Shown here: piece by piece, positions 6,988-38,113 of the stretch | Layout: every line of letters starts with the position of its first letter | Position numbering within the stretch: position 1 is the stretch's first letter | IMG/VR virus record: IMGVR_UViG_3300049917_000102 | Location: 1 to 39,101 of that record | Source: a virus | Taxonomy: Duplodnaviria > Caudoviricetes | Direction: 5' to 3' (one strand) | DNA length: 39,101 nucleotides | The notes under the pieces: model-generated | Seen by the model: only the letters and a program-made list of their open reading frames with translations | What the model was told of the DNA's origin: nothing | The model's database searches: none | Translations under genes and position numbers: made by a program

Positions 6988-8292
6988 ATGGCATCAATGA
7001 CACCATGGTCTCTACAAACTAGAGATGAATCATTTAAAATTAAGTACGGGAAATTGGCTGAAGTTGTATTCAACGCTGGTCACGAAATCCTTTCACAAGT
7101 AAAAACAAACGAGAAATTCGTTGGTAAGTCTTATGTTGAAGATCAACCACTAGGTTTCTCAGGGTCAGTTGGTTCTCGTAAATTACCAGTGGCAAACACA
7201 GGTAAATACGCTAACTCTATCCTTTACTCTAAAAAACTTTACGGACGTGTATTAATCGACCGTGAATCATTAAAAGCTGCTTCTACATCTGAAGGTGCTT
7301 TCTATGACTTTATGGATCGCCCAATGGACGACCTAATGATGTCATACGATCGTAACCGTTCAAGAATGTTATTCAGTGACGGTACAGGTATCCTTGGATA
7401 CGGTGACGCTGCAGCTGCTGATGTAACTGGTGCTGGTACAAACGTATCTCCATACGTTGTTACTTTCACAGCTACTAAGTTCAATGAAGGTAACTGGGAA
7501 GAAGGAGACTTTGTTCAAGTTGTAACTGGTATCAACGCTCTTGGTGCTGGTGGTACAGCTGAAGGTGGAGATAACACTACTAACTTACTTGAAGTTGTAT
7601 CTGTTGATCCAGTTGCTTACACTGTGTCTTTAGTTGGTACTTCTGCTGTTCTTGCTGGTTTAGTAGCTGGTCCAGCTCCACTTGGCGCTACTGCTGCTAT
7701 CGTTATGCAAAGATCATACGAAGGTGATATGACAGGTCTTAGAAAAATCTCTAAGTACACTGAAGCATGGATTGCTGGTACACCTAACTTAGATCTTTAC
7801 AACATTCCTCTTCAAAGAAGATGGTCTATGTATGTAAAAGACGCTGCTGGTGGTGCAATTTCTACAGCTATCCTTAACCGTGACATCGTTCAAGTTAAGT
7901 ACCGTTGTGGTAAATCAATCAACCTTATCGCTTGTTCATACACTCAGTACCAAAAAATGCTTGAGCTTGCTGAAAACGATAAGCGTTACCCTATGACTCC
8001 AGTAAACAAGCAATACGCACAATTTGGTTTCGATGCTGTTCAGTATATGACACCAGATGGAGCTGTTCCTGTTGTTATGGATCGTATGTGTGCTAAAGAT
8101 GAAATCTGGTTATTAAATACTAAGTATATGGAATTTTACTTAAGACCAGGTGGAATTGAGTTTGCAGAAGAGGACGGGTCAGTCTTTTTACGCAGTGCAG
8201 ATGAAGACACTTACGAAGCAAGACTATGTTCATATGGTGAGCTTTTTATTTCGCCATCGTTTCACGGACACATTAAAAATCTCGCAATCTAA
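6988..8292 (+). CDS. Major capsid protein (HK97-fold, with G/T/V-rich insertion)
   Basis: 434 aa after scaffold; visibly biased codons (AAC, TAC, ATC, CGT) as in highly expressed genes; followed by a terminator. Confidence 0.85.
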   Translation: MASMTPWSLQTRDESFKIKYGKLAEVVFNAGHEILSQVKTNEKFVGKSYVEDQPLGFSGSVGSRKLPVANTGKYANSILYSKKLYGRVLIDRESLKAASTSEGAFYDFMDRPMDDLMMSYDRNRSRMLFSDGTGILGYGDAAAADVTGAGTNVSPYVVTFTATKFNEGNWEEGDFVQVVTGINALGAGGTAEGGDNTTNLLEVVSVDPVAYTVSLVGTSAVLAGLVAGPAPLGATAAIVMQRSYEGDMTGLRKISKYTEAWIAGTPNLDLYNIPLQRRWSMYVKDAAGGAISTAILNRDIVQVKYRCGKSINLIACSYTQYQKMLELAENDKRYPMTPVNKQYAQFGFDAVQYMTPDGAVPVVMDRMCAKDEIWLLNTKYMEFYLRPGGIEFAEEDGSVFLRSADEDTYEARLCSYGELFISPSFHGHIKNLAI

Positions 8293-8401: not shown

Positions 8402-9142
8402 ATGGAACTATCTAAAGAAGAAATCAGAAAACAAAAGAAAAGAGAATATGATCGGAAATTTGCTGAAAAGTATAAAGAAAGACGTAAGCAAATAGATGCA
8501 GAAAGATGGAAAAACAAAGGAAAAGAAATCTCTGATAAGAAGAAAAAAATCAGAAAAGATTTAAAGGAAAACAATCCAGAGGAGTATGAAAAGCTATTGG
8601 CTGAACAGAGAGAGCGACTAAGAAAATATCAGCAAGAGAATAGGGATTATGTAAATCAAAAACAGCGTGAATATAGAGAGAAGAATAAAGATAAGTGGTT
8701 AGAAATGATGAGGGCATATAGGGATCAAAATAGGGAAAGAATAAATTTTCTAAGAAGAAACTCTCCACACTATATGAATGAAAAAGCTCTTAAAAAGACA
8801 GAAGAATATAGATCTGAAAATAGAGAATACTATAGAGATTTATCTAGAAAATGGAGAAAGGTAAATCCTGAAAAAGTTAGGTATCATGGTGCAGTCAGAG
8901 AAAGACGACTAGAAAATGCATCTATCGGAAAAGAAATGTTTAGAAAGCAGATAGAGGATCTGTATTTAGCAAAAATTAACCTAGAAAAACTAACAGGAAT
9001 TAAGTACCACGTTGACCATATAGTACCAATCAAGCACGACCTCATCTGCGGTCTCCATGTTCCATGGAATTTAAGAATTATTCCAGCAGAAGAAAATATA
9101 AAAAAATCCAACAAACTAGACTTAAACCTAATTATGCCTTAA
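8402..9142 (+). CDS. HNH endonuclease with repetitive basic helical N-terminus
   Basis: C-terminal HVDHIVP...[12 protein letters not shown]...EN..KSN; N-terminal repeats like [10 protein letters not shown]. Probably a free-standing homing endonuclease. Confidence 0.9.
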
Positions 9143-9145
9143 AAT
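9117..9145 (+). promoter_or_regulatory. Sigma70-type promoter
   Basis: TAGACT (9117-9122), 17 bp, TAAAAT (9140-9145); GGAGG RBS before ATG 9184. Confidence 0.6.
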
Positions 9146-9183
9146 TTAACTACCACTAAGAAGTCGATAGAACGGAGGGTATT

Positions 9184-10287
9184 ATGTCTATCAAAGGTAG
9201 TAAGTCAAAATTTGCTGTTAGGGAAGGCATCCCTGGAATTGAAAACACACAAGATTTACCTATTCATGTTACAGCACAGTCTGTTCCTGGTGAAAGAATT
9301 GCGTTAGATGTAGTATCACATGGTGTTTATGAAGTAAGTAACACTGGTGTAATTGGTGCTGCTTCTGTAAAAAGACTAATTCAGTCAGTGGCTCACGGAG
9401 CTAAGGCTGGAGATATTATCAAAATGACATCTGGAAACTCTCTAGATGCAGAAATTCCAATTATTGAAATCGTAGATGCAGATTTTTTTGTAATTCCATA
9501 CGAGGCAGATATTGCCGTTGCGGATACATTTAATCTTTTACGTCACGTTACTCCAAAGTATGCTGCTGATGGTTCTACATCGGTAACAATTACCACAGCA
9601 CCAACTCAATTTATATTGGATGGTATTCCTCAGCAGGTTATCGAGGATACAGTTGCTCCAGCTAACAATAGAGCAATGCCAAATAAGTTATTCATTGAGA
9701 TTGATGGTGTTCAATATGCAGTAAGTAAAGACACAGGTACACCATCAAATACAGTATCTGTTCCAGTAGAGATTACAGGTGCGTCAGGACCAATTAACAT
9801 CACGGCTGGAGATTTAAATGTTCAGTTAACTGATTTAGGTGCTAATTTCGATAGAACTAGAATTGGTAACGGTACCAATCAGTGGGAAATGAATGCCACT
9901 GGTGAGGGTCTTGTAAAAGATACTGATTTATTTAATGAGCTTCAAACATTTGCCAATGAGAATATGACAAATTTATTGGTAATAAGTGCTAAGCTGGATT
10001 CAATTATAGCAAATTCAGAAATTCAAACTGGATCGTTTGATGAAAAAATTGGATTTATTGCTGTTCAAACATTTACAGCACCAGCAAATGCTACAAGTGG
10101 AAATATAATGAATGTTGGATCAGGTAGCGTTAGATATAAGCAGGGTGGGGTTGCTACTTCTGTTTCTGGATTAAGATTAGAGCCTGGTAGATCAGAGCAG
10201 ATTTTAAATGGATCTAACATCAGTATTATCTCTGAAGATGGAACCACTGCCTGTGACGTTGCTATTATTTGGAATATTAAACCTTAA
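9184..10287 (+). CDS. Virion structural protein (beta-rich; fibre/decoration-like)
   Basis: G/T/S/V-rich; AHGAKAGDII motif; located between capsid and fibre genes. Confidence 0.6.
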   Translation: MSIKGSKSKFAVREGIPGIENTQDLPIHVTAQSVPGERIALDVVSHGVYEVSNTGVIGAASVKRLIQSVAHGAKAGDIIKMTSGNSLDAEIPIIEIVDADFFVIPYEADIAVADTFNLLRHVTPKYAADGSTSVTITTAPTQFILDGIPQQVIEDTVAPANNRAMPNKLFIEIDGVQYAVSKDTGTPSNTVSVPVEITGASGPINITAGDLNVQLTDLGANFDRTRIGNGTNQWEMNATGEGLVKDTDLFNELQTFANENMTNLLVISAKLDSIIANSEIQTGSFDEKIGFIAVQTFTAPANATSGNIMNVGSGSVRYKQGGVATSVSGLRLEPGRSEQILNGSNISIISEDGTTACDVAIIWNIKP

Positions 10288-10296
10288 GGAGATATT

Positions 10297-13200
10297 ATGA
10301 AAAAATATTTACTATTGCTTTTGTTGCCATGCTTGGCAGTAATTGCAAATCTCCCACCGACAACAAGTAAAGGTGATGGGGAAACTACCTACAAGACAAC
10401 ATTTGAAACTAATTACGATACCATTCCTGTAACAAGAACAGGCACAAGGGTTACGATTGGAACAATACCGCCAAGTAAGGGTGGTACTGGTTCGACATCT
10501 GTACCGACCAATGGTCAAGTACCAATAGGAAATGGGACTTCTTATGTTCCATCTACAATTACCGGAACAGCAAATCAGGTCAGTGTTACAAATGGAGCTG
10601 GTTCGATCACGCTTTCAACTCCACAAGACATTGCCACAAGTTCTAGCCCATCCTTCGACGGTGTTACTTTAACAAATACAGCACATGGATCGTTAAATAT
10701 CGGTCAAACACTAAACAGGATCGAAGGTACTTATTTAGTAAGTGGCGGTGTTCTGTCTATCGATGCTAACCCTACTAGGTTTGATCTTAGTGCCGGAACT
10801 GGTTATGTAACAGATAAATCAAACCCATCTTCACCAACATTAAAAACGGTAACATGGTCTGCGTTTGATTCTGTTGCAGTAGCAAACTTGGCAACTGCTG
10901 ATGTTACATACATTTTAATTAATGACTCTGGTGCAATTGTTCAGCAAACAACCTATCCAACTCCTCAGCAGAGAAGGGATAATATATTCATTGGGCGATT
11001 GCCTCATATTAATAGAACAAGCATTTCTTTTGCTCTTTCGTTGGCAGAATATGGACAAGGTGGAATCAATCAACTTTATGATTTATTTGATTCCCTCGGA
11101 CCATTTAAAATTAACGGTCTTAATATTTCGGCGAACGGTGCAAATCTAAAGATCAATCTTTCTTCTGGGGAAATGTTCTCCCGTTCATATAATTATCCGA
11201 CTACTCCAGAAAACCCAAATGAAGTAACTATTACAGGGAGCACATCTTCTACTTTTAGATACGGAACCCAGACGACATTTATCCAAACAAACGTAACAGA
11301 TATTAATCCAGCTTCCTACGATAATGCTGGTACAGTTACAACGGTTCCATCAAACAATAACGCAACTATTCAGCGTGTTTATCTATTTCCTACTGGTGCA
11401 ATAAGAATCTATTACGGTCAAAATGTTTATTCTAATTTTGCGGCTGCGATTGATAGTTTTTCAAATGATTCTTTTATAGAAAATCCAAACTCGCAAAACT
11501 TTGCAACACATATCGCATCGATTGTTATTACAAAATCATGTACCTCTTTGCAGGATACGACTTGTTCAAGAATTATCAATACAGGAAAATTTGGATCTGG
11601 AGGCTCTGCTGGTGGAGGATCAACTTCTTTACAGCAAGCCTATAACAACTCAGTGACTCCGCAAATAACTACTTCTACATCAGGAGGGTCGCTTGATCTT
11701 CGCAGAGGATCTGCTGCGGACACGGATAATGTTTTAAGAATTCAAAATGGTGCTGGCTCTGCGACTGCTACGATAACAGGTGCAGGGGTTATTACTGGTT
11801 CGAATTTATCTGGGACAAATACTGGAGACTTATTAGGTGGAGGGGATAACGATACTCCTGCTACGGTTTCTACTTTAGTAGTTCCTAATAAACAATTAAC
11901 ACTAACTGGTACAAATCAATATAGAGTTAATACTGGAAGCAATAACGAGCTTGAGAATCCAAACTTTGAACATTCGACAGTTACTACAGGATGGACTGTA
12001 GCAAATGCTACAGCATCTGCTGATACATCTACTCCCTTTGAAGGTAAGAAATCATTATCATTAGCATTAACCGGAGCTTTATCTCTAAGCCAATCATCAA
12101 CAATCAACGCAGCTAGAAAGCTTGGCGTTCAGATGGTTGCCTCTTTATGGGTAAAATCTGACGATGTTTCTGATTTACAGCTTTGCTCATTAAAGAATGG
12201 TGCTGAAGATAAATGTACCGTTACTGGTGGATACGTTCAAGGCTCAGGATGGAGACAATTAACAGTTTCCTTCCTTGGCGATTCAACTTCAAACGGTCTT
12301 AAATTAAAGTCTACAGATACAACTGGAACGGTTTTGGTTGATCAGGCTTTTGTAGGTGTTGGAAGTCCCGTTGTGGATTTTACGCCTGATATGGTTTATT
12401 CAGCTAGCGTATCGTCTGGGAACACTGTTTCCCTTGAAAATACAGACTGGATAACAACTTGCTCATGGTCTTCAGGAACATTGACTTGTAATTTTGTAAC
12501 TAGCAACTTCACGGTTGTTCCTAATTGCTGGGCTATTCCTATTGGAAACTCTCAAGGACAAAGAGTAATTGTATTCTCAGCCACAACGTCACAAGTTGTT
12601 TTTATTAACAGATCAAATGACGGAACGGCTAATCAAAACGTTGATCTTAATATCTTCTGCCAAAAACAAGGAGCCGACTACAAGACCTCTAAGGCTTATG
12701 TGGCGAGTGGAAGTGTTGCGCTGAATACGACTGAATATAGTGCAAAGATTTCAAATCTTGGTGTCGTGGATAGAGAAAACACTGACTTTATAAACGGTAA
12801 CTGCACGAATGCAAACCCTAGGGTGTGTACTTTTACCTCCGGTAGATTTACAGTGGCTCCAAATTGCGTTGTTACTGCCGTTGGTGGAAATGGTTTTATT
12901 GCCAGCTTTTCAGCAGAGGCATCTACGACACAGGTTGAAATACAGACATCTTTGGATAATGGGGCAGCCACTCAATATACGACATATTTATTCTGCCAAA
13001 AACAAGGCGCAGACTATACCGCTGCATTTAATCCCGTCATAGTTGGAAGCTTTCAAGGATACAACAGCACACCTGGATCTTCTTCTCCTAAAATATATAG
13101 CGCAGAGATCAGTGGAACTGGAGCTGTTAGTAAGGAGTTTGGCGACCTTATCAACGGTAACTGCACAAGCGCAACACCTTCTGTTTGTACATTTACAGCA

Positions 13201-13374
13201 AATAGATTCAGCAGTGAGCCAAACTGCTCGATATCAGTTGTCGGTGTGACGACAAATAGGTCAGCGTCGTTTCAAGCAATAAGCTCAACTTCTTTTTCCT
13301 TTAACGTTAATCAAAATAGTGGCGGAGTAGCCCTAATGGATTTTCCAGTTAAAGTCATTTGCCACGGAGAGTGA
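10297..13374 (+). CDS. Tail fibre/adhesin-like protein with N-terminal signal peptide, CBM-like domain and three Cys-rich C-terminal repeats
   Basis: MKKYLLLLLLPCLAVIA leader; fibre motifs PPSKGGTG, TSLQQAYN, LSGTNTGD; NELENPNFE...GW...EGKKSL (CBM4/9-like); three ~95-aa repeats. Confidence 0.75.
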   Translation: MKKYLLLLLLPCLAVIANLPPTTSKGDGETTYKTTFETNYDTIPVTRTGTRVTIGTIPPSKGGTGSTSVPTNGQVPIGNGTSYVPSTITGTANQVSVTNGAGSITLSTPQDIATSSSPSFDGVTLTNTAHGSLNIGQTLNRIEGTYLVSGGVLSIDANPTRFDLSAGTGYVTDKSNPSSPTLKTVTWSAFDSVAVANLATADVTYILINDSGAIVQQTTYPTPQQRRDNIFIGRLPHINRTSISFALSLAEYGQGGINQLYDLFDSLGPFKINGLNISANGANLKINLSSGEMFSRSYNYPTTPENPNEVTITGSTSSTFRYGTQTTFIQTNVTDINPASYDNAGTVTTVPSNNNATIQRVYLFPTGAIRIYYGQNVYSNFAAAIDSFSNDSFIENPNSQNFATHIASIVITKSCTSLQDTTCSRIINTGKFGSGGSAGGGSTSLQQAYNNSVTPQITTSTSGGSLDLRRGSAADTDNVLRIQNGAGSATATITGAGVITGSNLSGTNTGDLLGGGDNDTPATVSTLVVPNKQLTLTGTNQYRVNTGSNNELENPNFEHSTVTTGWTVANATASADTSTPFEGKKSLSLALTGALSLSQSSTINAARKLGVQMVASLWVKSDDVSDLQLCSLKNGAEDKCTVTGGYVQGSGWRQLTVSFLGDSTSNGLKLKSTDTTGTVLVDQAFVGVGSPVVDFTPDMVYSASVSSGNTVSLENTDWITTCSWSSGTLTCNFVTSNFTVVPNCWAIPIGNSQGQRVIVFSATTSQVVFINRSNDGTANQNVDLNIFCQKQGADYKTSKAYVASGSVALNTTEYSAKISNLGVVDRENTDFINGNCTNANPRVCTFTSGRFTVAPNCVVTAVGGNGFIASFSAEASTTQVEIQTSLDNGAATQYTTYLFCQKQGADYTAAFNPVIVGSFQGYNSTPGSSSPKIYSAEISGTGAVSKEFGDLINGNCTSATPSVCTFTANRFSSEPNCSISVVGVTTNRSASFQAISSTSFSFNVNQNSGGVALMDFPVKVICHGE
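12397..13371 (+). repeat. Three tandem ~95-aa domain repeats
   Basis: Repeats begin YSA at 12397, 12736 and 13096. DNA copies: TTCTGCCAAAAACAAGG (12655-12671, 12991-13007) and AACGGTAACTGCAC (12793-12806, 13153-13166). Confidence 0.9.
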
Positions 13375-13375
13375 T

Positions 13376-13879
13376 ATGTTGGCAAGATATAGGGATACTG
13401 AATATTTTTGTACTCCATATGGAGAGGTTTATAGAAAGATGAAAGACAAATATCGTCCAATGAAAAGCTCTCCAGACAGGGGTGGTTACCAAAGAATTGG
13501 CATAAGTATTAATGGAAAATCGATGCAAAAGTTTGTCCATAGAATGGTTTTTGAGTCCTGGGTTCATGAAATACCAGAAGGTCTATATGTTGACCATCTA
13601 GACTTTGACGTTAGAAATAATAATATTTCAAACCTTAGACTGCTCACAAGGTCAGAAAACTCAAAAAGAAAAAAGATAGTTAGAAACGGGCAACTTAATC
13701 CAAAATCCATAATGAGTGATGAAGTTTTAATAAAATGCTTTGAGAGTATGAAGCTGCCAAGAAACTCAAGGTCTAAATATGCAGGGGTTTCTGCTAGACA
13801 AATAAGAAGGGCTGTGAATGGGGAAACCCACAAATCTGACTCTATTAGATTGGGTTTAATTAAAGCAATCCCACAGTAA
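13376..13879 (+). CDS. HNH endonuclease (HNH_3/I-HmuI-like) with C-terminal HTH-like segment
   Basis: GY...FVHRMV...VDHLD...NNNISNLRLLT..EN; C-terminal GVSARQIRR. Confidence 0.88.
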   Translation: MLARYRDTEYFCTPYGEVYRKMKDKYRPMKSSPDRGGYQRIGISINGKSMQKFVHRMVFESWVHEIPEGLYVDHLDFDVRNNNISNLRLLTRSENSKRKKIVRNGQLNPKSIMSDEVLIKCFESMKLPRNSRSKYAGVSARQIRRAVNGETHKSDSIRLGLIKAIPQ

Positions 13880-13888
13880 GGAAAAACT

Positions 13889-14503
13889 ATGTTCAATTGG
13901 TTAAAGAATTTATTTAAAAAGAAACAAACGGAGGCTCCAAAAGCGGAGTCTTCTAAACCGAACATTCCGGAAATACCGGATAGTTCAAAAAAGAAGTTAA
14001 AAATTGCAGTTGTCCTAGGTCACGGGTCGGACGATCCTGGAGCTTCTGGGCAAGGTACAAATGAAGTCGAATACAACACTTGGTGCATGAAACAATTAGA
14101 AGGAATGGAAAACGTAAAATGCTTCTATGGTAAAAACAGCATTGATGCAATTAGAAAGTCTTTGCCTTACTTAGCAGATTTAACTATCCAGCTTCACCTA
14201 AATTCAGCTGGACCAACTGCTCATGGGTGTGAAGTTCTAGTGCTAGACGGAGACAAAAAGTCTTATCCATACGCTGAAAAGTTTGCAGGAATGTTTTGCG
14301 GTTATTTTAGAAGAAGAATGCGTGGGGAAACTGGTAAAAAGAAGCTTACCTCAAAAGATCGTGGATATTCTTCATTGAAGCTGACAGTGTTTGGTTCTAA
14401 AATTTTAGTGGAGCCTTGGTTTTTGAGTAACAAGGAAGAATATCTGAGCAAGGAAGAGTACGCACAGTTTCTTAAGAAATACATTGAGGAAGTACAGAAA
14501 TGA
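13889..14503 (+). CDS. Endolysin, N-acetylmuramoyl-L-alanine amidase (Amidase_3)
   Basis: VVLGHG..D.GA....E, QLHLNS, GCEV and ILVEPWFLSN zinc-amidase motifs. Confidence 0.9.
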   Translation: MFNWLKNLFKKKQTEAPKAESSKPNIPEIPDSSKKKLKIAVVLGHGSDDPGASGQGTNEVEYNTWCMKQLEGMENVKCFYGKNSIDAIRKSLPYLADLTIQLHLNSAGPTAHGCEVLVLDGDKKSYPYAEKFAGMFCGYFRRRMRGETGKKKLTSKDRGYSSLKLTVFGSKILVEPWFLSNKEEYLSKEEYAQFLKKYIEEVQK

Positions 14504-14694
14504 GCTTTAAAAAAATCGGGGCAGAGTTAATATTATCAGCCATTCTAGTACCTATTTTAGCATGGTTTTTCGCCTCGATTATTGCTTTACAGAACTCTTA
14601 TGCTACACTCAAGGAGCGCTCGGACATCAGGGAAGAAACATTAAGAGAAATTAAGGATGATGTAAAATTCATTCGACAACAACTGGAGAGATAA
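14500..14694 (+). CDS. Holin-like membrane protein
   Basis: One TM segment followed by a coiled coil; ATGA overlap with the endolysin. Confidence 0.55.
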   Translation: MSFKKIGAELILSAILVPILAWFFASIIALQNSYATLKERSDIREETLREIKDDVKFIRQQLER

Positions 14695-14695
14695 T

Positions 14696-14974
14696 ATGAC
14701 TGAAAAAAAGACTATCGCAGAAACATTGGAATTATTGGAAGGATTAAAGATTGCAGCTGTTGCAATTGCTAAAATCAGCAAAGATAAAAAAGTAAATGCT
14801 GAAGATCTTCCTACTTTAATTGAATTAGCTACTGAATTTGAAACTTTAGTTAAAGCTTTCTCTAATCTTGATGAAGTTCCACAAGAACTAAAAGATCTTG
14901 AAGAAGAAGAAGTTATCGCCATTATCACTAAAGTTTACTCAATCGGTAAACAAGTTAAGGCTGAATTAGCATAA
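14696..14974 (+). CDS. Hypothetical protein in the lysis cassette
   Basis: GGAG RBS, tight packing, helical sequence. Confidence 0.75.
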   Translation: MTEKKTIAETLELLEGLKIAAVAIAKISKDKKVNAEDLPTLIELATEFETLVKAFSNLDEVPQELKDLEEEEVIAIITKVYSIGKQVKAELA

Positions 14975-15064
14975 TGAAATGGTGGGAGTTAATAACAGTC
15001 TTTAATACAGTCTGCTATTGGACTCCCATCCTGTTTCGCTCTTGGTGGGCATGGAAGGTGAAAC

Positions 15065-15289
15065 GTGCTAGTAGAAATAATGGCAGCTCTCAGAGCAATA
15101 GCGACGATAGCATCGACATTGAAAGAAATCTCAGATCGATTGGCTCAGTTAAAGCAGGATTCGATCCATAAAGAAATAGCAAGCTATAAAAAAGAGGTTC
15201 GTGATGTTCTCTATCAAATCGAAAATGCTAAAACCAATGAAGATCGTAAGCATCTTAGTCGTAAGCTCGCTGAGTCTCTCGGTAAGTAA
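15065..15289 (+). CDS. Possible i-spanin (Rz-like)
   Basis: GTG start after GGAAGGTG; weakly hydrophobic N-terminus plus coiled coil; overlaps a downstream lipoprotein-like gene. Confidence 0.45.
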   Translation: MLVEIMAALRAIATIASTLKEISDRLAQLKQDSIHKEIASYKKEVRDVLYQIENAKTNEDRKHLSRKLAESLGK

Positions 15290-15521
15290 GTGTGACAAAG
15301 CCCCTTACCCGATGCCACAAGCAGAAATATGTGTGCATTATGACGATGGCGGAGCAGGTTGTACTGACCTTAGAAAACCAGAAGAAGATAGATCATACGA
15401 TAATTACAAGCTAGAAAACTACATATGCACAAATCCAAAAGACTATCAAGCGTACTCAGATTACATCTTCGAGATCCGTGAAAAACTTATTCGCTGTGAA
15501 TATCAGTTAAGACGTAAATAA
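15237..15521 (+). CDS. Possible o-spanin lipoprotein (Rz1-like)
   Basis: MKIVSILVVSSLSLSVSKC leader, Pro-rich start of mature chain, extra Cys; start 15225 or 15237. Confidence 0.55.
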   Translation: MKIVSILVVSSLSLSVSKCDKAPYPMPQAEICVHYDDGGAGCTDLRKPEEDRSYDNYKLENYICTNPKDYQAYSDYIFEIREKLIRCEYQLRRK

Positions 15522-16640: not shown

Positions 16641-17045
16641 ATGAACTACGGATCAGATAATTATAGCCTATTAGGCGAACTAAGAAATAAAAAACTATCT
16701 ACATCATACGATGATCAAAATCCACAGATGGATACAATGGCTGATCTTAACAAATCAGTGCCTAATGACTCTTGGAAAACAGCTGCTGCTCAAGGCGCTG
16801 TTCAAGGTGGTGGAGCTGGTATTTCTGGTATGCTTATGGGTGGTGGATTAAATGCTGCTCTTATGGGGGCTGGACCGGCTGGTTTTGGTGTTGCTGGAGC
16901 TGGATTAATCTTATCTCAGATTGAGGCAAAGCAAAAAGCAAAGCAAGCTCAAGAGCAGGCAATCGCAGCTGAAGCTGAAAATAGAAAAGCACAAACAGTA
17001 TCAGCTCTAAATAATCTTATGAGAGCTGGGGCTACGGTAGCATGA
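16641..17045 (+). CDS. Gly/Ala-rich putative internal virion (ejection) protein
   Basis: Glycine-zipper-like hydrophobic segment followed by an A/Q/K coiled coil. Confidence 0.55.
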   Translation: MNYGSDNYSLLGELRNKKLSTSYDDQNPQMDTMADLNKSVPNDSWKTAAAQGAVQGGGAGISGMLMGGGLNAALMGAGPAGFGVAGAGLILSQIEAKQKAKQAQEQAIAAEAENRKAQTVSALNNLMRAGATVA

Positions 17046-17911
17046 TGAGAAGGGCGCAACTTCTAGTAAATGAAGCTAGACAAAATACAAATACACAGGA
17101 TCAAACAGAGGCAATGCCTGATACACTTTTGTTTCAGTTATTGAATAGAATCCAGTCATATATCCAAGATTTCATTGCTAGTTCGGGAGTTAAGAATAAG
17201 TTTAACTCTAATGTTTATGACTTTACGACCATAGTTGGTCAAAATGAATATGATCTTCCATATGACATCTTCAATTCAAATTCAGTAAATGCTGTTTGGA
17301 TTGTACTTACTGATGGTCCTAGACAAAAATTTATTCCAATGACTAATATCTCTGAGAAGTCTCAAACAAATGAGTTTGGATATGTTCTCAGAAATAATAA
17401 AATCATTATGCCTCCATTTGATTTCTCTAATTACTTTATTAGAGTTTCGTATGCAAAAAAGGTCCCTGATTTAAATTTAAGATACGGAAAGATTAAAACA
17501 GTAAATGCAAATTCACTTGTTTTAGATGCTGGATATGGGACAGGTGCGAATAGCTTATATGATTATTTTTCAGTTGTAGATGCTAATGGAGAAATCATTA
17601 AATACAATATGGATTTCACATCTCAGGTAGCAGATACTATCACTACAGGTGATACTACAGGTATTTCAGTGGGACAATTTGTTGTTCCTGGATATTATGC
17701 ATCTTCCCATTCTCAGTTGGTTGATTCTTGTGAAAAGATTCTTTTGACTGGACTAGAGAAGCTTATTATGGCTAGACTTTCATCTAGAGATATTGAGATT
17801 GCTAGTGCTATTGATGGCTCTATGCTGTCTCAGGTCATGGAAACATTGGCAGATAATAGTGCTGATGATTTTGCTCCTCCGATTTTACAAAATAAGGAAT
17901 GGTTCTTCTAA
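17042..17911 (+). CDS. Head-tail adaptor (tail tubular protein A-like)
   Basis: N-terminal helices then T..GQNEYDLPYD motif; lies before a nozzle-like gene. Confidence 0.65.
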   Translation: MMRRAQLLVNEARQNTNTQDQTEAMPDTLLFQLLNRIQSYIQDFIASSGVKNKFNSNVYDFTTIVGQNEYDLPYDIFNSNSVNAVWIVLTDGPRQKFIPMTNISEKSQTNEFGYVLRNNKIIMPPFDFSNYFIRVSYAKKVPDLNLRYGKIKTVNANSLVLDAGYGTGANSLYDYFSVVDANGEIIKYNMDFTSQVADTITTGDTTGISVGQFVVPGYYASSHSQLVDSCEKILLTGLEKLIMARLSSRDIEIASAIDGSMLSQVMETLADNSADDFAPPILQNKEWFF

Positions 17912-20031
17912 TGAAGATTTTTGAACTTGGTGGAATCGATCAAAAGAGCAATCCACTAACAATACAAGACAATAAGTTAATTGACGCTAGAAACGTGCAG
18001 TTAGACACGAATAGATTTTATATCAAGAGAAAGGGGTATGCTGGAGCAATTGCACTTGATACGGGTGAAGAATTTGCAGACGCAGTATATTTTAAATCTA
18101 AAAATCAAATTGTAGCTTTTGTTACATTTGATGGTGGCGGTGTTTTTGGATACAGTGTAAATGTTTACGATGGTACTACATTTGCATTTATCAGAAGTAT
18201 TTATGGATCAACAACAGGGTTAACTAGACCAGTAATCACAGTTGAAAGTGACGAGTATCTAGATGATCTGTATTACATTATGACTATTGATGGTCTAACT
18301 TCAGTTGTTCTTAAAACTGATGGTTATTACACATACACAGCAGGTCTGCCCACACCAATCGCATCTGGATTTAGCGCTGGAACAACTTATTATTGGCGTG
18401 TATTCTGGAGAACTAGAGATCTAAATGGAAATATTGTATATTCTCCATATGAACAGTTTTCTACTAATACGCTAGTTACTTCATATACAGTTCAGCAATT
18501 AATCACACAGGCTTTTGTCGGCTATGCTCAGTATCTTGATCTACTATCCGGAACTCCGCAAACGATTAACCAATCCAACCCTACCATTACAAATGTTGGG
18601 CATAATCTAAGTGCAGGTCAATTTGTATTTATTAGCTCAGATGATTGTGTTAGTGGTGGAATTGTAATTAATCAGCCTACAAATAGAACATTTATATTAC
18701 TAGAGGTTTTATCTACAACAGGATCTACTGTAACATTTACAAATGCGTCTTTAGATGGTGTAGATATTACTTTTACATATGTAGTTCCATCAGGAAGACA
18801 GCCTTTAGATGGTAGGCAATCATTGGTGACTGCAATTTCTACAAATGCAGATGCTGGGTATGTGATTTATACTCAGACAAACTTTACAGCTAAAAATGGA
18901 ATATCCACTCCAGTGACAGCACAACCTGCATCTTTTACCACTTCTAATGCTTGGAATAGCACGGGAATTTTGCTCGAAGATGTTTATGATACATCTACAT
19001 CAAAACTAAGACCTCCTCTATGCAAATACATTAAGGCATTTGGAGATCAGTTGGTTTATGGTAATATTATTGGTCTGTGGGATCAAAATAACGTTTTTAC
19101 GCAAATTAATAATAATGACATTATTTTCTATTCTGATATTTCAACAGGTGATAGCGGAGAGAATATCAGTGCAGTAAATAGACAAAAAATTGGTGAGTCT
19201 TATGATGGTCAGGTAACTGGCTTAACAAGATCAAGGGATTCACTGATTGTTGGTAAAGATAGATCTTTGTGGTCGCTTGATGGTGTCCTTGTCCCTGGAG
19301 AGTTTGCTCTTAGGAAGATCGAGACTAACTATATTGGATGTCTATCTAATAAGTCATTTTTACAGATTCAATCTGGATTCCTATTCCAAGGAAATGATGG
19401 AATTTATATCAGTAATGGATTTAAGGCTGAAAAGTTTACAGATTCTCTTGATCCATTTTTTAGTGCTATCGATAAGACACTTACAAAATCAGCAATTGAT
19501 GTATCCCAAGATAAATACTTATTTTATGTAACTGATGGTATCAGTAACTACATCGCTGCATATGACTGGCACTGGAATGAATGGTTTATTTGGGATTCTC
19601 TAAACTGTGAGTCTGGATTAATTAATACAAATGAAGACAAGGTTCTATTTTTTAATAATACTGATGGTTATGTGTTTGATGATGCACGAAATGATGATGG
19701 TGTGGCGATTGATGCTTGGTTAAAGACTAAGTTTTTCGATAACGGAGAGCCTGGACTAATTAATAAGTTTACAGAGCTAAGAATTTATAATTTAAATAAT
19801 GTGAATTTTACCTTAGATGTTGAGCAGTTTAAGGATTGGTCTACAGCTGGATCAGGTCAGACTAAGACATTTACATTTTCAGGTAAAAATTCAAGGATGA
19901 ATTGCCTTCCTATTGCAAATAATAACTCAGTATCACTTAAAATGAGCAACAGTGTGTTGGATGAAAACATCTGCATTTCTGGATATGAGTTTGCTGTTAA
20001 GGACTGGGGCGTGGTGGATAAGACACGATGA
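17911..20031 (+). CDS. Tail nozzle / packaged-DNA stabilisation protein (P22 gp10 / T7 gp12-like)
   Basis: N-terminal GGID...P......DARNV....KRKG, beta-propeller-like body, WLKTKFFDNGEP..NKF near the C-terminus; start 17899 or 17911. Confidence 0.75.
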   Translation: MKIFELGGIDQKSNPLTIQDNKLIDARNVQLDTNRFYIKRKGYAGAIALDTGEEFADAVYFKSKNQIVAFVTFDGGGVFGYSVNVYDGTTFAFIRSIYGSTTGLTRPVITVESDEYLDDLYYIMTIDGLTSVVLKTDGYYTYTAGLPTPIASGFSAGTTYYWRVFWRTRDLNGNIVYSPYEQFSTNTLVTSYTVQQLITQAFVGYAQYLDLLSGTPQTINQSNPTITNVGHNLSAGQFVFISSDDCVSGGIVINQPTNRTFILLEVLSTTGSTVTFTNASLDGVDITFTYVVPSGRQPLDGRQSLVTAISTNADAGYVIYTQTNFTAKNGISTPVTAQPASFTTSNAWNSTGILLEDVYDTSTSKLRPPLCKYIKAFGDQLVYGNIIGLWDQNNVFTQINNNDIIFYSDISTGDSGENISAVNRQKIGESYDGQVTGLTRSRDSLIVGKDRSLWSLDGVLVPGEFALRKIETNYIGCLSNKSFLQIQSGFLFQGNDGIYISNGFKAEKFTDSLDPFFSAIDKTLTKSAIDVSQDKYLFYVTDGISNYIAAYDWHWNEWFIWDSLNCESGLINTNEDKVLFFNNTDGYVFDDARNDDGVAIDAWLKTKFFDNGEPGLINKFTELRIYNLNNVNFTLDVEQFKDWSTAGSGQTKTFTFSGKNSRMNCLPIANNNSVSLKMSNSVLDENICISGYEFAVKDWGVVDKTR

Positions 20032-20414
20032 AGCCAATAATTAAAAATAAAATACCATTTTTAGATAGCTTTAACTCACCAGAGGAAGCATTTAATTACA
20101 TGGCAAAGGTAATTAATTCATCTTTTATTGAAGAATCTAATATAGATATTGATTCTGATAGGTTTATGGTTGATGGTGAGCTATTTACAGTAAGCATAAC
20201 GAGTGGTGGAATAGTTGGGTCAACAGTATTAAATCACAATCTAGGATGGATTCCTAGGGCTGCTTTATATGCTGGTGGTTTTTATAATTCTGGTGGTATT
20301 GCTTATTTTTTTGGGTTCGATTGGTCTGGTGCGACTTCAACACAAATTACAATATCTACAGTAATACAGTCACCTGGTGACGTTGTAAATTTTAAGGTTT
20401 TTCTGATAAAATAA
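20028..20414 (+). CDS. Small tail-associated protein
   Basis: HNLGWIP motif and beta-rich C-terminus; ATGA coupling. Confidence 0.55.
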   Translation: MKPIIKNKIPFLDSFNSPEEAFNYMAKVINSSFIEESNIDIDSDRFMVDGELFTVSITSGGIVGSTVLNHNLGWIPRAALYAGGFYNSGGIAYFFGFDWSGATSTQITISTVIQSPGDVVNFKVFLIK

Positions 20415-35490: not shown

Positions 35491-35763
35491 TTACTCCTTT
35501 TCATGTAGTTCATTTTGAAAATGAAAAACTTCTCTTTTATGCTGAACAACTGTTCTTATGACTTTATAATCATAAGCCCATTTTCCCTTTTCTTTTTTGT
35601 AAACATTGTGGCAAATAGAATACCACTTTGTATTAACTGAAAGCTGATCTGTTGTTATGTATCCCTTACATGGAATCATCTTGCAAGAAATACCATCTTT
35701 AGAAAAAGGGCAATCGGCAAAAGAATTAAAGCTAATTAACATTAAAAATAAAATCTTTTTCAT
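35491..35763 (-). CDS. Secreted Cys-containing protein
   Basis: MKKILFLMLISFNSFA signal peptide; four Cys in the mature chain. Confidence 0.7.
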   Translation of the reverse strand: MKKILFLMLISFNSFADCPFSKDGISCKMIPCKGYITTDQLSVNTKWYSICHNVYKKEKGKWAYDYKVIRTVVQHKREVFHFQNELHEKE

Positions 35764-36734
35764 TTGTATAGCATCTCCCTAATATTTCTCGCCTCAATCT
35801 CGTAAAAAACACTATCGTCAAAATACTCACTCATTCCTTTAAAGATATGAGCTATGACATCTACAGTCCAACCATTGCCAAGCATTTTGTACGCCTGTGC
35901 CTTTGAGACGTTCATAATATAATCATCTGGCACGGTCTGAAGTCTCTTGCATTCGAGAACTGATAGTTTTCTAATGCAGTAATCATCGTGATATAGTCCT
36001 GTTTTTGCTCCCCAGCCACCGCCAAGTGCACTTAAACAAACTGACTTACCACTTTCGTGATAAACCCTAGTCCCCATACTCTTTGTTACAGCCCCAAGTC
36101 TAATCGGCTTACTTGATCTCTCGAAAACAACTTGTCGCCTCTTTTTCTTTAAATACTGTTCTAGGTTAGTTCCTTTAAAGTAATTAGCATCGATGCAATA
36201 ACTCTTATCTCTATCTACTAAGCCGTGTTCGATAATATCACTAAGAACAATTCCCTTATCCTTCCAAGGCAAGATAGGAATATTAGTCCAATATAGACGT
36301 GATCTTTTCTGAGCTGAAAAATCTGAGCTCTCAATTCGTACTGGTTTTACTCCCAATTGTTCGCTAATAACATCTTGGTACTCTTGCTTCATTATCACGT
36401 TTTCAAGTAAGAAGTATTTAGGCTTACACTCTCTAAGTAGGCGAACATACTCAAAGAAAAGCTTAGATCTTGGATCTTCAAAATTTAATTGCTTACCAGC
36501 AAACGAAAATCCCTGGCACGGACTACCACCAATTAGTAAGTCAATCCTTGGAAGACTTTCAGAGTTCACTATTGTAACATCACCAATATGCTCTATATCA
36601 TTCCAATTATCCTTACTTACCTGAATGGCGTACTTATCAATTTCAGCTGCTAAATATCTAGACGGAGTAACTCCAGCTCTATTTAATGCGATTCTTCCAC
36701 AACTCATTCCATCAAATAAACTAAGTACGTTCAT
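35760..36734 (-). CDS. DNA (cytosine-5) methyltransferase
   Basis: LSLFDG, EID, GGSPCQGFS, LENV, Q.R.R.YW, RLQT and LGNGW motifs. Confidence 0.93.
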   Translation of the reverse strand: MNVLSLFDGMSCGRIALNRAGVTPSRYLAAEIDKYAIQVSKDNWNDIEHIGDVTIVNSESLPRIDLLIGGSPCQGFSFAGKQLNFEDPRSKLFFEYVRLLRECKPKYFLLENVIMKQEYQDVISEQLGVKPVRIESSDFSAQKRSRLYWTNIPILPWKDKGIVLSDIIEHGLVDRDKSYCIDANYFKGTNLEQYLKKKRRQVVFERSSKPIRLGAVTKSMGTRVYHESGKSVCLSALGGGWGAKTGLYHDDYCIRKLSVLECKRLQTVPDDYIMNVSKAQAYKMLGNGWTVDVIAHIFKGMSEYFDDSVFYEIEARNIREMLYK

Positions 36735-37678: not shown

Positions 37679-37868
37679 TAAAAACCTCGTTTATACATTT
37701 CATACAAGCATAATTACTTAATATAGAAACAGGACCACAATAAACATCTCCGTTATTTGACGGATATGCTTTAGTCATTACAGCATAATCCCCCTTATCT
37801 ATTACCGACTCGCACCTAATACATTTATGATCTTTTCTTGTTTTTAGCTTTTTACTTACTACTTTCAT
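37659..37868 (-). CDS. Small Zn-finger protein
   Basis: KTRKDHKCIRC...I.KG...CMKC; TGATG coupling. Confidence 0.7.
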   Translation of the reverse strand: MKVVSKKLKTRKDHKCIRCESVIDKGDYAVMTKAYPSNNGDVYCGPVSILSNYACMKCINEVFNETPNQ

Positions 37869-38113
37869 CACTTCACCATACATGAATTAGCCAAACTGAA
37901 TACACGCTGGCAATCCACCTTTTTAGCCTTTTTAACCGCTTTTCTAGGTTTAGCCTTACTCTGCACCACTTTTACAGTCTCAACTGATTTAACAGGCAAG
38001 TAATATTCCCTCACTGTATATTTAACAGTTGCCATGTTATGGCGTTTGTATCCATGTGAGGAACAGCCAGCAACTAAACCAGATAGCAAACACAAACTAA
38101 CTAAACTTTTCAT
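37868..38113 (-). CDS. Small lipoprotein
   Basis: MKSLVSLCLLSGLVAG-C lipobox; AAGGAG RBS before ATG 38113. Confidence 0.75.
   Translation of the reverse strand: MKSLVSLCLLSGLVAGCSSHGYKRHNMATVKYTVREYYLPVKSVETVKVVQSKAKPRKAVKKAKKVDCQRVFSLANSCMVK

Follow-up and report, generated by a model that had tools for sequence, protein, structure and literature searches.

A signal peptide-bearing, cysteine-paired phage fibre that probably joins the virion at lysis

A fibre gene with an export signal follows a probable adaptor gene

The window analysed here, a linear virus record (IMGVR_UViG_3300049917_000102), comprises 39,101 bases and is 95% complete. Among the late virion genes of this tailed phage lies an open reading frame (ORF) at 10297-13374 (+) that encodes a fibre-like protein of 1025 aa. 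An earlier note on this DNA had proposed that the protein is exported and oxidised in the periplasm, and then either becomes a virion part at or after lysis or acts as a host-surface adhesin. The start is fixed by a strong ribosome-binding site (RBS), as that note had held: a Shine-Dalgarno sequence, AAGGAG at 10286-10291 (+), lies 5 nt before the ATG and overlaps the stop codon of the upstream adaptor gene. Leaders were called throughout with a hydrophobicity-plus-charge rule, a heuristic of our own. By this rule and by comparison with homologues, residues 1-17 (10297-10347, +) form a signal peptide of the Sec/signal peptidase I (SPase I) type, composed of MKK, a hydrophobic core whose mean Kyte-Doolittle value over 8 residues is 2.96, and AVIA|N, with a basic n-region, a hydrophobic h-region and small -3/-1 residues. 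This is the 17-residue leader that had been read before. Among the large virion genes of the window, the fibre gene alone encodes such a leader.

The mature chain begins with an N-terminal segment of the xLPP class (residues 18-57; 10348-10467, +), hereafter the plug, and the family alignment places a conserved segment of ~30 aa behind the leader. A Gly/Thr-rich stem of a kind common to other fibre-like proteins follows (residues 58-144; 10468-10728, +), and then a tail-fibre domain, D1 (residues 145-446; 10729-11634, +), which matches PHROG tail-fibre families 16641 (E 1e-36) and 5668 (E 2.5e-16) and is found in 23 cultured-phage records, several of them annotated as tailspike or tail fibre. 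Modelling with AlphaFold2 (AF2) revealed a carbohydrate-binding module (CBM) fold of the galactose-binding-like kind at residues 547-692 (11935-12372, +). CBM matches dominated the fold-search lists for the fibre, the best of them at Z 15.6 (rmsd 2.3, 134 aligned; residues ~547-690). The C-terminal end consists of three ~95-aa beta repeats (12391-12681, 12730-13017 and 13093-13371, together 12391-13371, +), each with four cysteines. There are 17 cysteines in all: C12 in the leader and 16 in the mature chain, with pairs in D1 (415/423) and the CBM (630/640) and sets of four in the repeats (722/731/744/788, 836/844/857/900 and 956/964/977/1022). The earlier description of a mature chain with phage-fibre motifs, a CBM-like domain and 16 cysteines, arranged as two local pairs plus three repeats of four, was thus accurate. 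Sequence searches of the PDB with the whole fibre, its C-terminal half and the Cys repeat returned nothing significant, all ESM Atlas hits were under 0.9, and no membrane or cell-surface anchor was seen in the mature chain. A suspected likeness of the Cys repeat, and of a 128-aa tail gene, to H-type-lectin-like domains found no support.

Contigs of many relatives in other sequencing runs cover 11847-12719 (the CBM and the first repeat) and leave D1 uncovered, a contrast that points to module swapping. Matches in RNA runs are likewise contigs of relatives and are uninformative on expression.

The leader ends where leaderless relatives begin

Comparison of homologues, which the earlier note had named as a check, revealed that most keep the leader (89 of 113), including 68 of the 77 with a CBM and 78 of the 88 with Cys repeats. 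Predicted cleavage sites across the family mostly have small -3/-1 residues. Ten proteins with CBM or repeats were exceptions; seven of these seem by eye to have truncated starts, while P0039, P0045 and P0094 appear truly leaderless. Among D1-only proteins, the leader was present in just 9 of 112, and the leaderless rows were poor in cysteine. The arrangement is not unique to the window phage and recurs in podo- and siphovirus-like genomes: a leader-bearing CBM/Cys-repeat fibre lies at 9074-12079 in a siphovirus-like genome (L001), and two complete 48-kb podophages encode family members with a leader (L205, 15307-19131 (-); L207, 13573-15990 (-)). The latter two lie near leaderless proteins whose starts resemble the T7 gp17 anchor by eye, a resemblance that Pfam did not confirm.

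Loci were also gathered by the fibre (39), by the capsid protein (69) and by the upstream adaptor gene (53 and 41). A profile search yielded 90 distinct pairs of adaptor and next gene, plus 14 adaptors for which no partner was called. Fourteen pairs were excluded because the frame was wrong, an HNH gene was inserted, the partner was small and not a fibre, the start was uncertain or the C-terminus was unlike the others; this left 76, with two leader calls corrected by eye. The partner had a leader in 57 of these pairs and lacked one in 19. In 15 of the leaderless partners, the N-terminus after Met is of the type that leader-bearing relatives show past their cleavage site; the remaining four constitute a separate class. 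One leaderless partner (L119) carries the window's own xLPP plug directly after Met, with upstream stops in all three frames, and P0398 and P0399 likewise begin with this plug directly after Met. Because leaderless partners start with the same plug, the leader looks like an add-on to a fibre docking peptide, gained or lost on fibre-type proteins. Leader state changes at least nine times on a quick adaptor tree.

The leaderless occupants of the slot are themselves fibre-like. Four of them (L107, L095, L112 and L132) match tail-fibre or collar PHROGs, and the leaderless P0045 joins a T7-gp17-type anchor to the D1-CBM-repeat body of the window fibre (32% over 671 columns). A mis-called start or a chance hydrophobic N-terminus is ruled out by leader conservation, the RBS and the leaderless counterparts.

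Cysteines come and go in pairs and rise in number with the leader

Across 220 repeats, whose rows are related by descent so that p values overstate, the first and second cysteines (C1/C2, 154/3/13/49) and the third and fourth (C3/C4, 203/0/0/8) are kept or lost together, and cross pairs are independent. Because C1/C2 and C3/C4 co-vary as pairs, the repeats point to disulfides 722-731, 744-788 and their equivalents. After collapse at 45% identity, Cys counts were even in 25 of 27 leader-bearing clusters versus 18 of 29 leaderless clusters. In a set of 62 proteins gathered with an N-terminal profile, 52 pass the leader rule, and 51 of these 52 have an even count. The median number of cysteines is 16 with a leader and 4 without. 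The gain and loss of local pairs together, tied to the leader, argues against a metal-binding role. Taken with the conserved leader and a cleavage point that coincides with the leaderless N-terminus, this pairwise co-variation gives the predicted export and periplasmic oxidation good comparative support.

The plug tracks a putative docking domain on the adaptor

The gene immediately upstream (9184-10287, +) encodes a leaderless protein of 367 aa with one cysteine (g367). Its AF2 model (pLDDT 83) and family alignment show an N-terminal beta-barrel, a variable stalk, a helix and a C-terminal jelly-roll. The jelly-roll (residues 279-367; 10018-10284, +), hereafter the socket, belongs to a PGR class, and the match of this class to the partner makes it the putative docking site of the fibre. 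The adaptor had no PHROG hit, and neither adaptor nor socket had a PDB sequence hit. From its family pattern, the protein looks like an adaptor for the fibre.

Socket class and the class of the mature N-terminus in the partner agreed in all 76 pairs (PGR with xLPP, 17/17; GVGQ with QGDAP, 9/9; GPD with AVAP, 8/8; YD with FNP, 4/4; the remaining class, 38/38), but these classes were defined post hoc and the largest, of 38 rows, is a default class, which tempers the argument for docking. Across 72 rows, pairwise similarity of the socket tracked that of the plug (r 0.66, partial 0.64), and that of the adaptor N-terminus did so little (r 0.23, partial 0.09). The socket also occurs behind other N-termini with the matching plug retained; L021, L024 and L025 are examples of sockets fused to other N-termini. 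Among 120 socket proteins, the socket was C-terminal in 119, the window's N-terminal domain was present in 31, and 27 had a leader of their own.

At one locus (L026, 7232-11866), a free 108-aa socket precedes three leader-bearing proteins, the second of which ends in a socket that matches the plug of the third. This layout suggests chains of socket-plug links. Elsewhere, a nuclease-like gene separates the adaptor from its partner (L081), and a short adaptor with a socket has no fibre partner behind it in a phage with a nozzle enlarged to 1149 aa (L070, 9497-10189). Five loci (L094, 12936-13781; L178, L052, L146 and L086) encode extra small proteins with socket-like C-termini between the capsid gene and the adaptor, possibly a head-decoration cascade.

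The place of the adaptor on the particle can be read in two ways. Its gene follows the capsid gene, and there is a weak likeness to the capsid turret of the virus HFTV1 (socket to 8qpg_TD, Z 7.8; CBM to 8qpg_TC, Z 10.5; both in the range of common folds), which suggests a position on the head; the window holds no other large fibre gene, which suggests a position on the tail.

The host is probably a member of the Bdellovibrionota

Since the window encodes a spanin-like pair, a two-membrane host is suggested, and the relatives of the adaptor and fibre indicate that this host is probably one of the Bdellovibrionota. Two relevant proteins are named from Bdellovibrio sp. ArHS, in each case from a contig of 173,630 bp: P0317, a complete homologue of the adaptor (E 2e-33), and P0425, a fibre that matches the family profile at E 5e-39 and combines a leader, xLPP, 14 cysteines, a CBM region and one repeat. 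The cultured Bdellovibrio phage phi1422 encodes a leader-bearing protein with 8 cysteines, gp68, directly after a leaderless tail fibre, gp67, and its helicase is 34% identical to that of the window. In phi1422 (L212), gp68 (40429-42273) and gp75 (44298-44810) both have a leader, and gp75 follows the leaderless tail-fibre gene gp73 with the short gp74 between them. A Silvanigrella phage has a portal-like gene in common with the window, but no large leader-bearing fibre was seen in it. A GTDB scan found no fibre relative among 33 pattern matches.

A model for fibre attachment at lysis and its alternatives

The 10297-13374 product is probably a receptor-binding fibre that is exported, oxidised and added to the virion at lysis. 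The fibre would be exported by Sec and cleaved by SPase I after A17, its eight Cys pairs would be oxidised by a Dsb-type system, and it would trimerise. The 367-aa adaptor would be mounted on the head or tail of the particle while this is still in the cytoplasm. Holin action would let particles meet the stored fibres before or while the outer membrane fails; once lysis opens the inner membrane, the freed fibre N-terminus would plug into the adaptor socket, and the CBM and Cys repeats would bind host surface glycans. In a Bdellovibrionota host, lysis inside the prey cell would confine particles and fibres together. A broader proposal, to which we give slightly better than even chances, is that Bdellovibrionota phages finish their particles in two compartments: periplasm-stocked disulfide fibres, and sometimes exported link chains, would snap onto the sockets of cytoplasmic adaptors at lysis, with the leader, many times acquired and lost, acting as an evolutionary switch that shifts a virion part from one folding compartment to the other.

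Between the two fates that the earlier note had offered for the exported protein, virion part or host-surface adhesin, the first is favoured and the second less so, because leaderless tail-fibre-type proteins share the slot and the plug, and because the plug tracks the C-terminal domain of a cytoplasmic adaptor. In the adhesin case, the product would belong to the surface or the periplasm of an infected cell or a lysogen, as a protein (an adhesin like the MAT fibres of Bdellovibrio, a receptor mask or a decoy) that is never on the particle. We consider this unlikely, though it is the strongest competitor. Bdellovibrio exports signal-bearing, disulfide-containing fibre adhesins of its own (PMC10769870, in the part of the paper covered here), homologues are present in a Bdellovibrio genome, 27 of the 120 socket proteins have leaders, and three leader-bearing genes stand in a row in L026. 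Such a protein would, however, have no call for a plug that tracks a leaderless adaptor or that leaderless tail-fibre-type proteins use in the same slot, and it fits poorly with a location among late virion genes, with the failure to find an integrase in the window and with the lack of a visible anchor in the mature chain.

A second alternative, which we regard as improbable, keeps assembly on the cytoplasmic side: the leader would be a temporary membrane tether, or a fraction of the protein would escape export, and disulfides would form only after lysis. Leaderless relatives that retain Cys pairs and evidently work from the cytoplasm speak for it. SPase I cuts on the outer face of its membrane, however, and the leaders end at SPase I-type sites precisely where the leaderless proteins begin; P0001 has no alternative ATG start within its first 200 residues, and Cys number rises with the leader. 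Least likely of all is a free soluble lectin, released at lysis to act unattached on neighbouring cells or prey surfaces, which would suit the CBM fold and the rapid module swapping but would leave the conserved class-matched plug, the fibre stem and D1 unexplained.

Several points weigh against fibre export followed by attachment at lysis. Export, virion incorporation and receptor binding are all predictions from sequence. Fold searches returned no clear structural counterpart by which the adaptor could be located on the virion (best Z 9.0), and because the coding sequences of socket and plug lie side by side, gene linkage can produce part or all of the signal in their match. The 27 leader-bearing socket proteins would also allow wholly extracellular assemblies. 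Leaderless relatives (P0039, P0094, P0045 and P0149) retain some Cys pairs, and Cys counts are even in 8 of the 11 complete leaderless partners that have cysteines, so the modules do not require export, which appears to be one solution for them and not an obligatory one. For the host, the ArHS link consists of two protein records whose genes are possibly adjacent in a prophage; phi1422 gp68 lacks a family-core match by hhalign and has only one widespread domain in common with sibling proteins; and the sole GTDB capsid hit is in a 10-kb contig of a Parcubacteria metagenome-assembled genome, probably a case of mis-binning.

Relation to known fibre systems

An adaptor that carries a distal fibre is an architecture of a known kind; export of the distal part would be the new element. 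In multi-part tail fibres and adaptor-tailspike systems, as is proposed for the window pair, a virion-proximal adaptor docks a distal, mosaic receptor-binding protein through a short N-terminal segment, and the CBM fold of the window fibre recurs in CBA120 TSP4 (5w6h, Z 14.5) and in fibres of Klebsiella phages (7xyc, Z 13.0). In the T4 gp34-gp37, CBA120 TSP4, G7C and SP6/K1-5 systems, the parts are reportedly made and joined in the cytoplasm, whereas the distal part in the window bears an export signal that is predicted to be cleaved, together with eight Cys pairs. To our knowledge, the assembly of tailed-phage particles is regarded as an entirely cytoplasmic process, and the literature searched, mostly outside subscription papers, yielded no description of tailed phages that export their tail fibres. 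Sec and periplasmic disulfide formation are used by the coat proteins of filamentous phages and by spanins, but the particles of filamentous phages are put together at the membrane, and spanins do not become part of a virion; the window case is a tailed-phage fibre with a signal.

Comparable in build are the MATs of Bdellovibrio bacteriovorus, adhesins that the predator encodes on its chromosome and in which a conserved domain of ~130 aa lies past the leader; 13 of 21 have S74 (Caulton et al. 2024, PMC10769870). As described in the part of that paper covered here, MAT fibres are like the window fibre in length (about 1000 aa) and in having a signal peptide, a mosaic body that resembles phage fibres and disulfide-bearing tips, and the predator that makes them belongs to the same bacterial phylum as the probable host of the window phage. 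The window fibre differs in being encoded by a phage, among capsid and tail genes, and in carrying a ~30-aa plug after the leader. It had no S74 Pfam hit and no PDB sequence hit.

The phi1422 pair (NC_019525) provides a cultured parallel, in that a leaderless fibre protein, gp67, is followed by a leader-bearing, fibre-like protein with an even Cys count, gp68; phi1422 is, however, a myovirus, and its gp67 and gp68 lack the window-type socket and plug, respectively. The part of the phi1422 paper covered here mentions neither gp68 nor virion mass spectrometry (PMC3391216). The HFTV1 turret resembles the proposed pair in setting a small base protein and a trimeric, CBM-bearing head on the capsid, but HFTV1 is an archaeal virus with a hexameric base, and the part of that source covered mentions no signal peptide (10.1101/2024.12.09.627619).

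If the model is correct, tailed-phage morphogenesis would gain an assembly step triggered by lysis, infectivity would depend on the Sec and Dsb systems of the host, and disulfide-rich binding folds would be open to phages. The family makes the idea directly testable, with a ~90-aa socket, a ~30-aa plug in several matched classes and natural leaderless controls, and a cultured Bdellovibrio phage with a like arrangement aids this. The findings also provide a probable link of an uncultured phage clade to the Bdellovibrionota and hint that phage fibres and predator adhesins may have traded modules.

Genomic setting of the pair

The window phage is short-tailed (a podophage). Pfam and PHROG searches identified a terminase, SU10-like portal, capsid and tail-adaptor proteins, a protein resembling a nozzle and putative core proteins, as well as genes for replication and a lysis cassette with an amidase, and found no integrase; a second large fibre gene was not found in the window either. 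The SU10-like major capsid protein (MCP) gene lies at 6988-8292 (+; Pfam SU10_MCP E 4.6e-9, PHROG major head). Two HNH genes bracket the adaptor-fibre pair: one, endonuclease-like by domain and family matches, between the MCP gene and the adaptor (8402-9142, +), and an HNH endonuclease gene behind the fibre (13376-13879, +; Pfam HNH_3 E 1.7e-13). In relatives, the first position often holds a gene for ~115-130 aa instead. The short-tail genes, for the tail adaptor, the nozzle and the 128-aa protein, occupy 17042-20414 (+), as read from PHROG, Pfam and sequence.

The lysis cassette (13889-15521, +) comprises an amidase endolysin (Amidase_3 E 5.6e-12), small membrane proteins and probable spanins. 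Layout and sequence point to a probable i-spanin at 15065-15289 (+) that overlaps a probable o-spanin lipoprotein at 15237-15521 (+). Three ORFs in different frames overlap at 14974-15521: a Trp-rich one of 65 aa, a coiled-coil one of 74 aa with a GTG start, and a Cys-rich, lipoprotein-like one. These probably include the spanins, with the real i-spanin being one of the first two.

Searches of cultured phages with the MCP, portal, terminase, exonuclease, adaptor, socket and repeats returned distant matches or none, so by these comparisons no cultured phage is close to the window phage. Capsid-profile matches in three long IMG/VR records (G001-G003) were weak or absent. Promoter and terminator counts in the window were at chance level. 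The one public run that contains the whole stretch is labelled freshwater sediment and shows no differences in the region of the fibre gene; it may be the source and is thus not independent. Two small genes in the early region (35491-35763 (-) and 37868-38113 (-)) encode proteins with four cysteines each, one with a Sec-type and one with a lipoprotein-type signal, which are possibly superinfection-exclusion or envelope proteins. A C-5 cytosine methyltransferase is encoded at 35760-36734 (-; E 9e-49).

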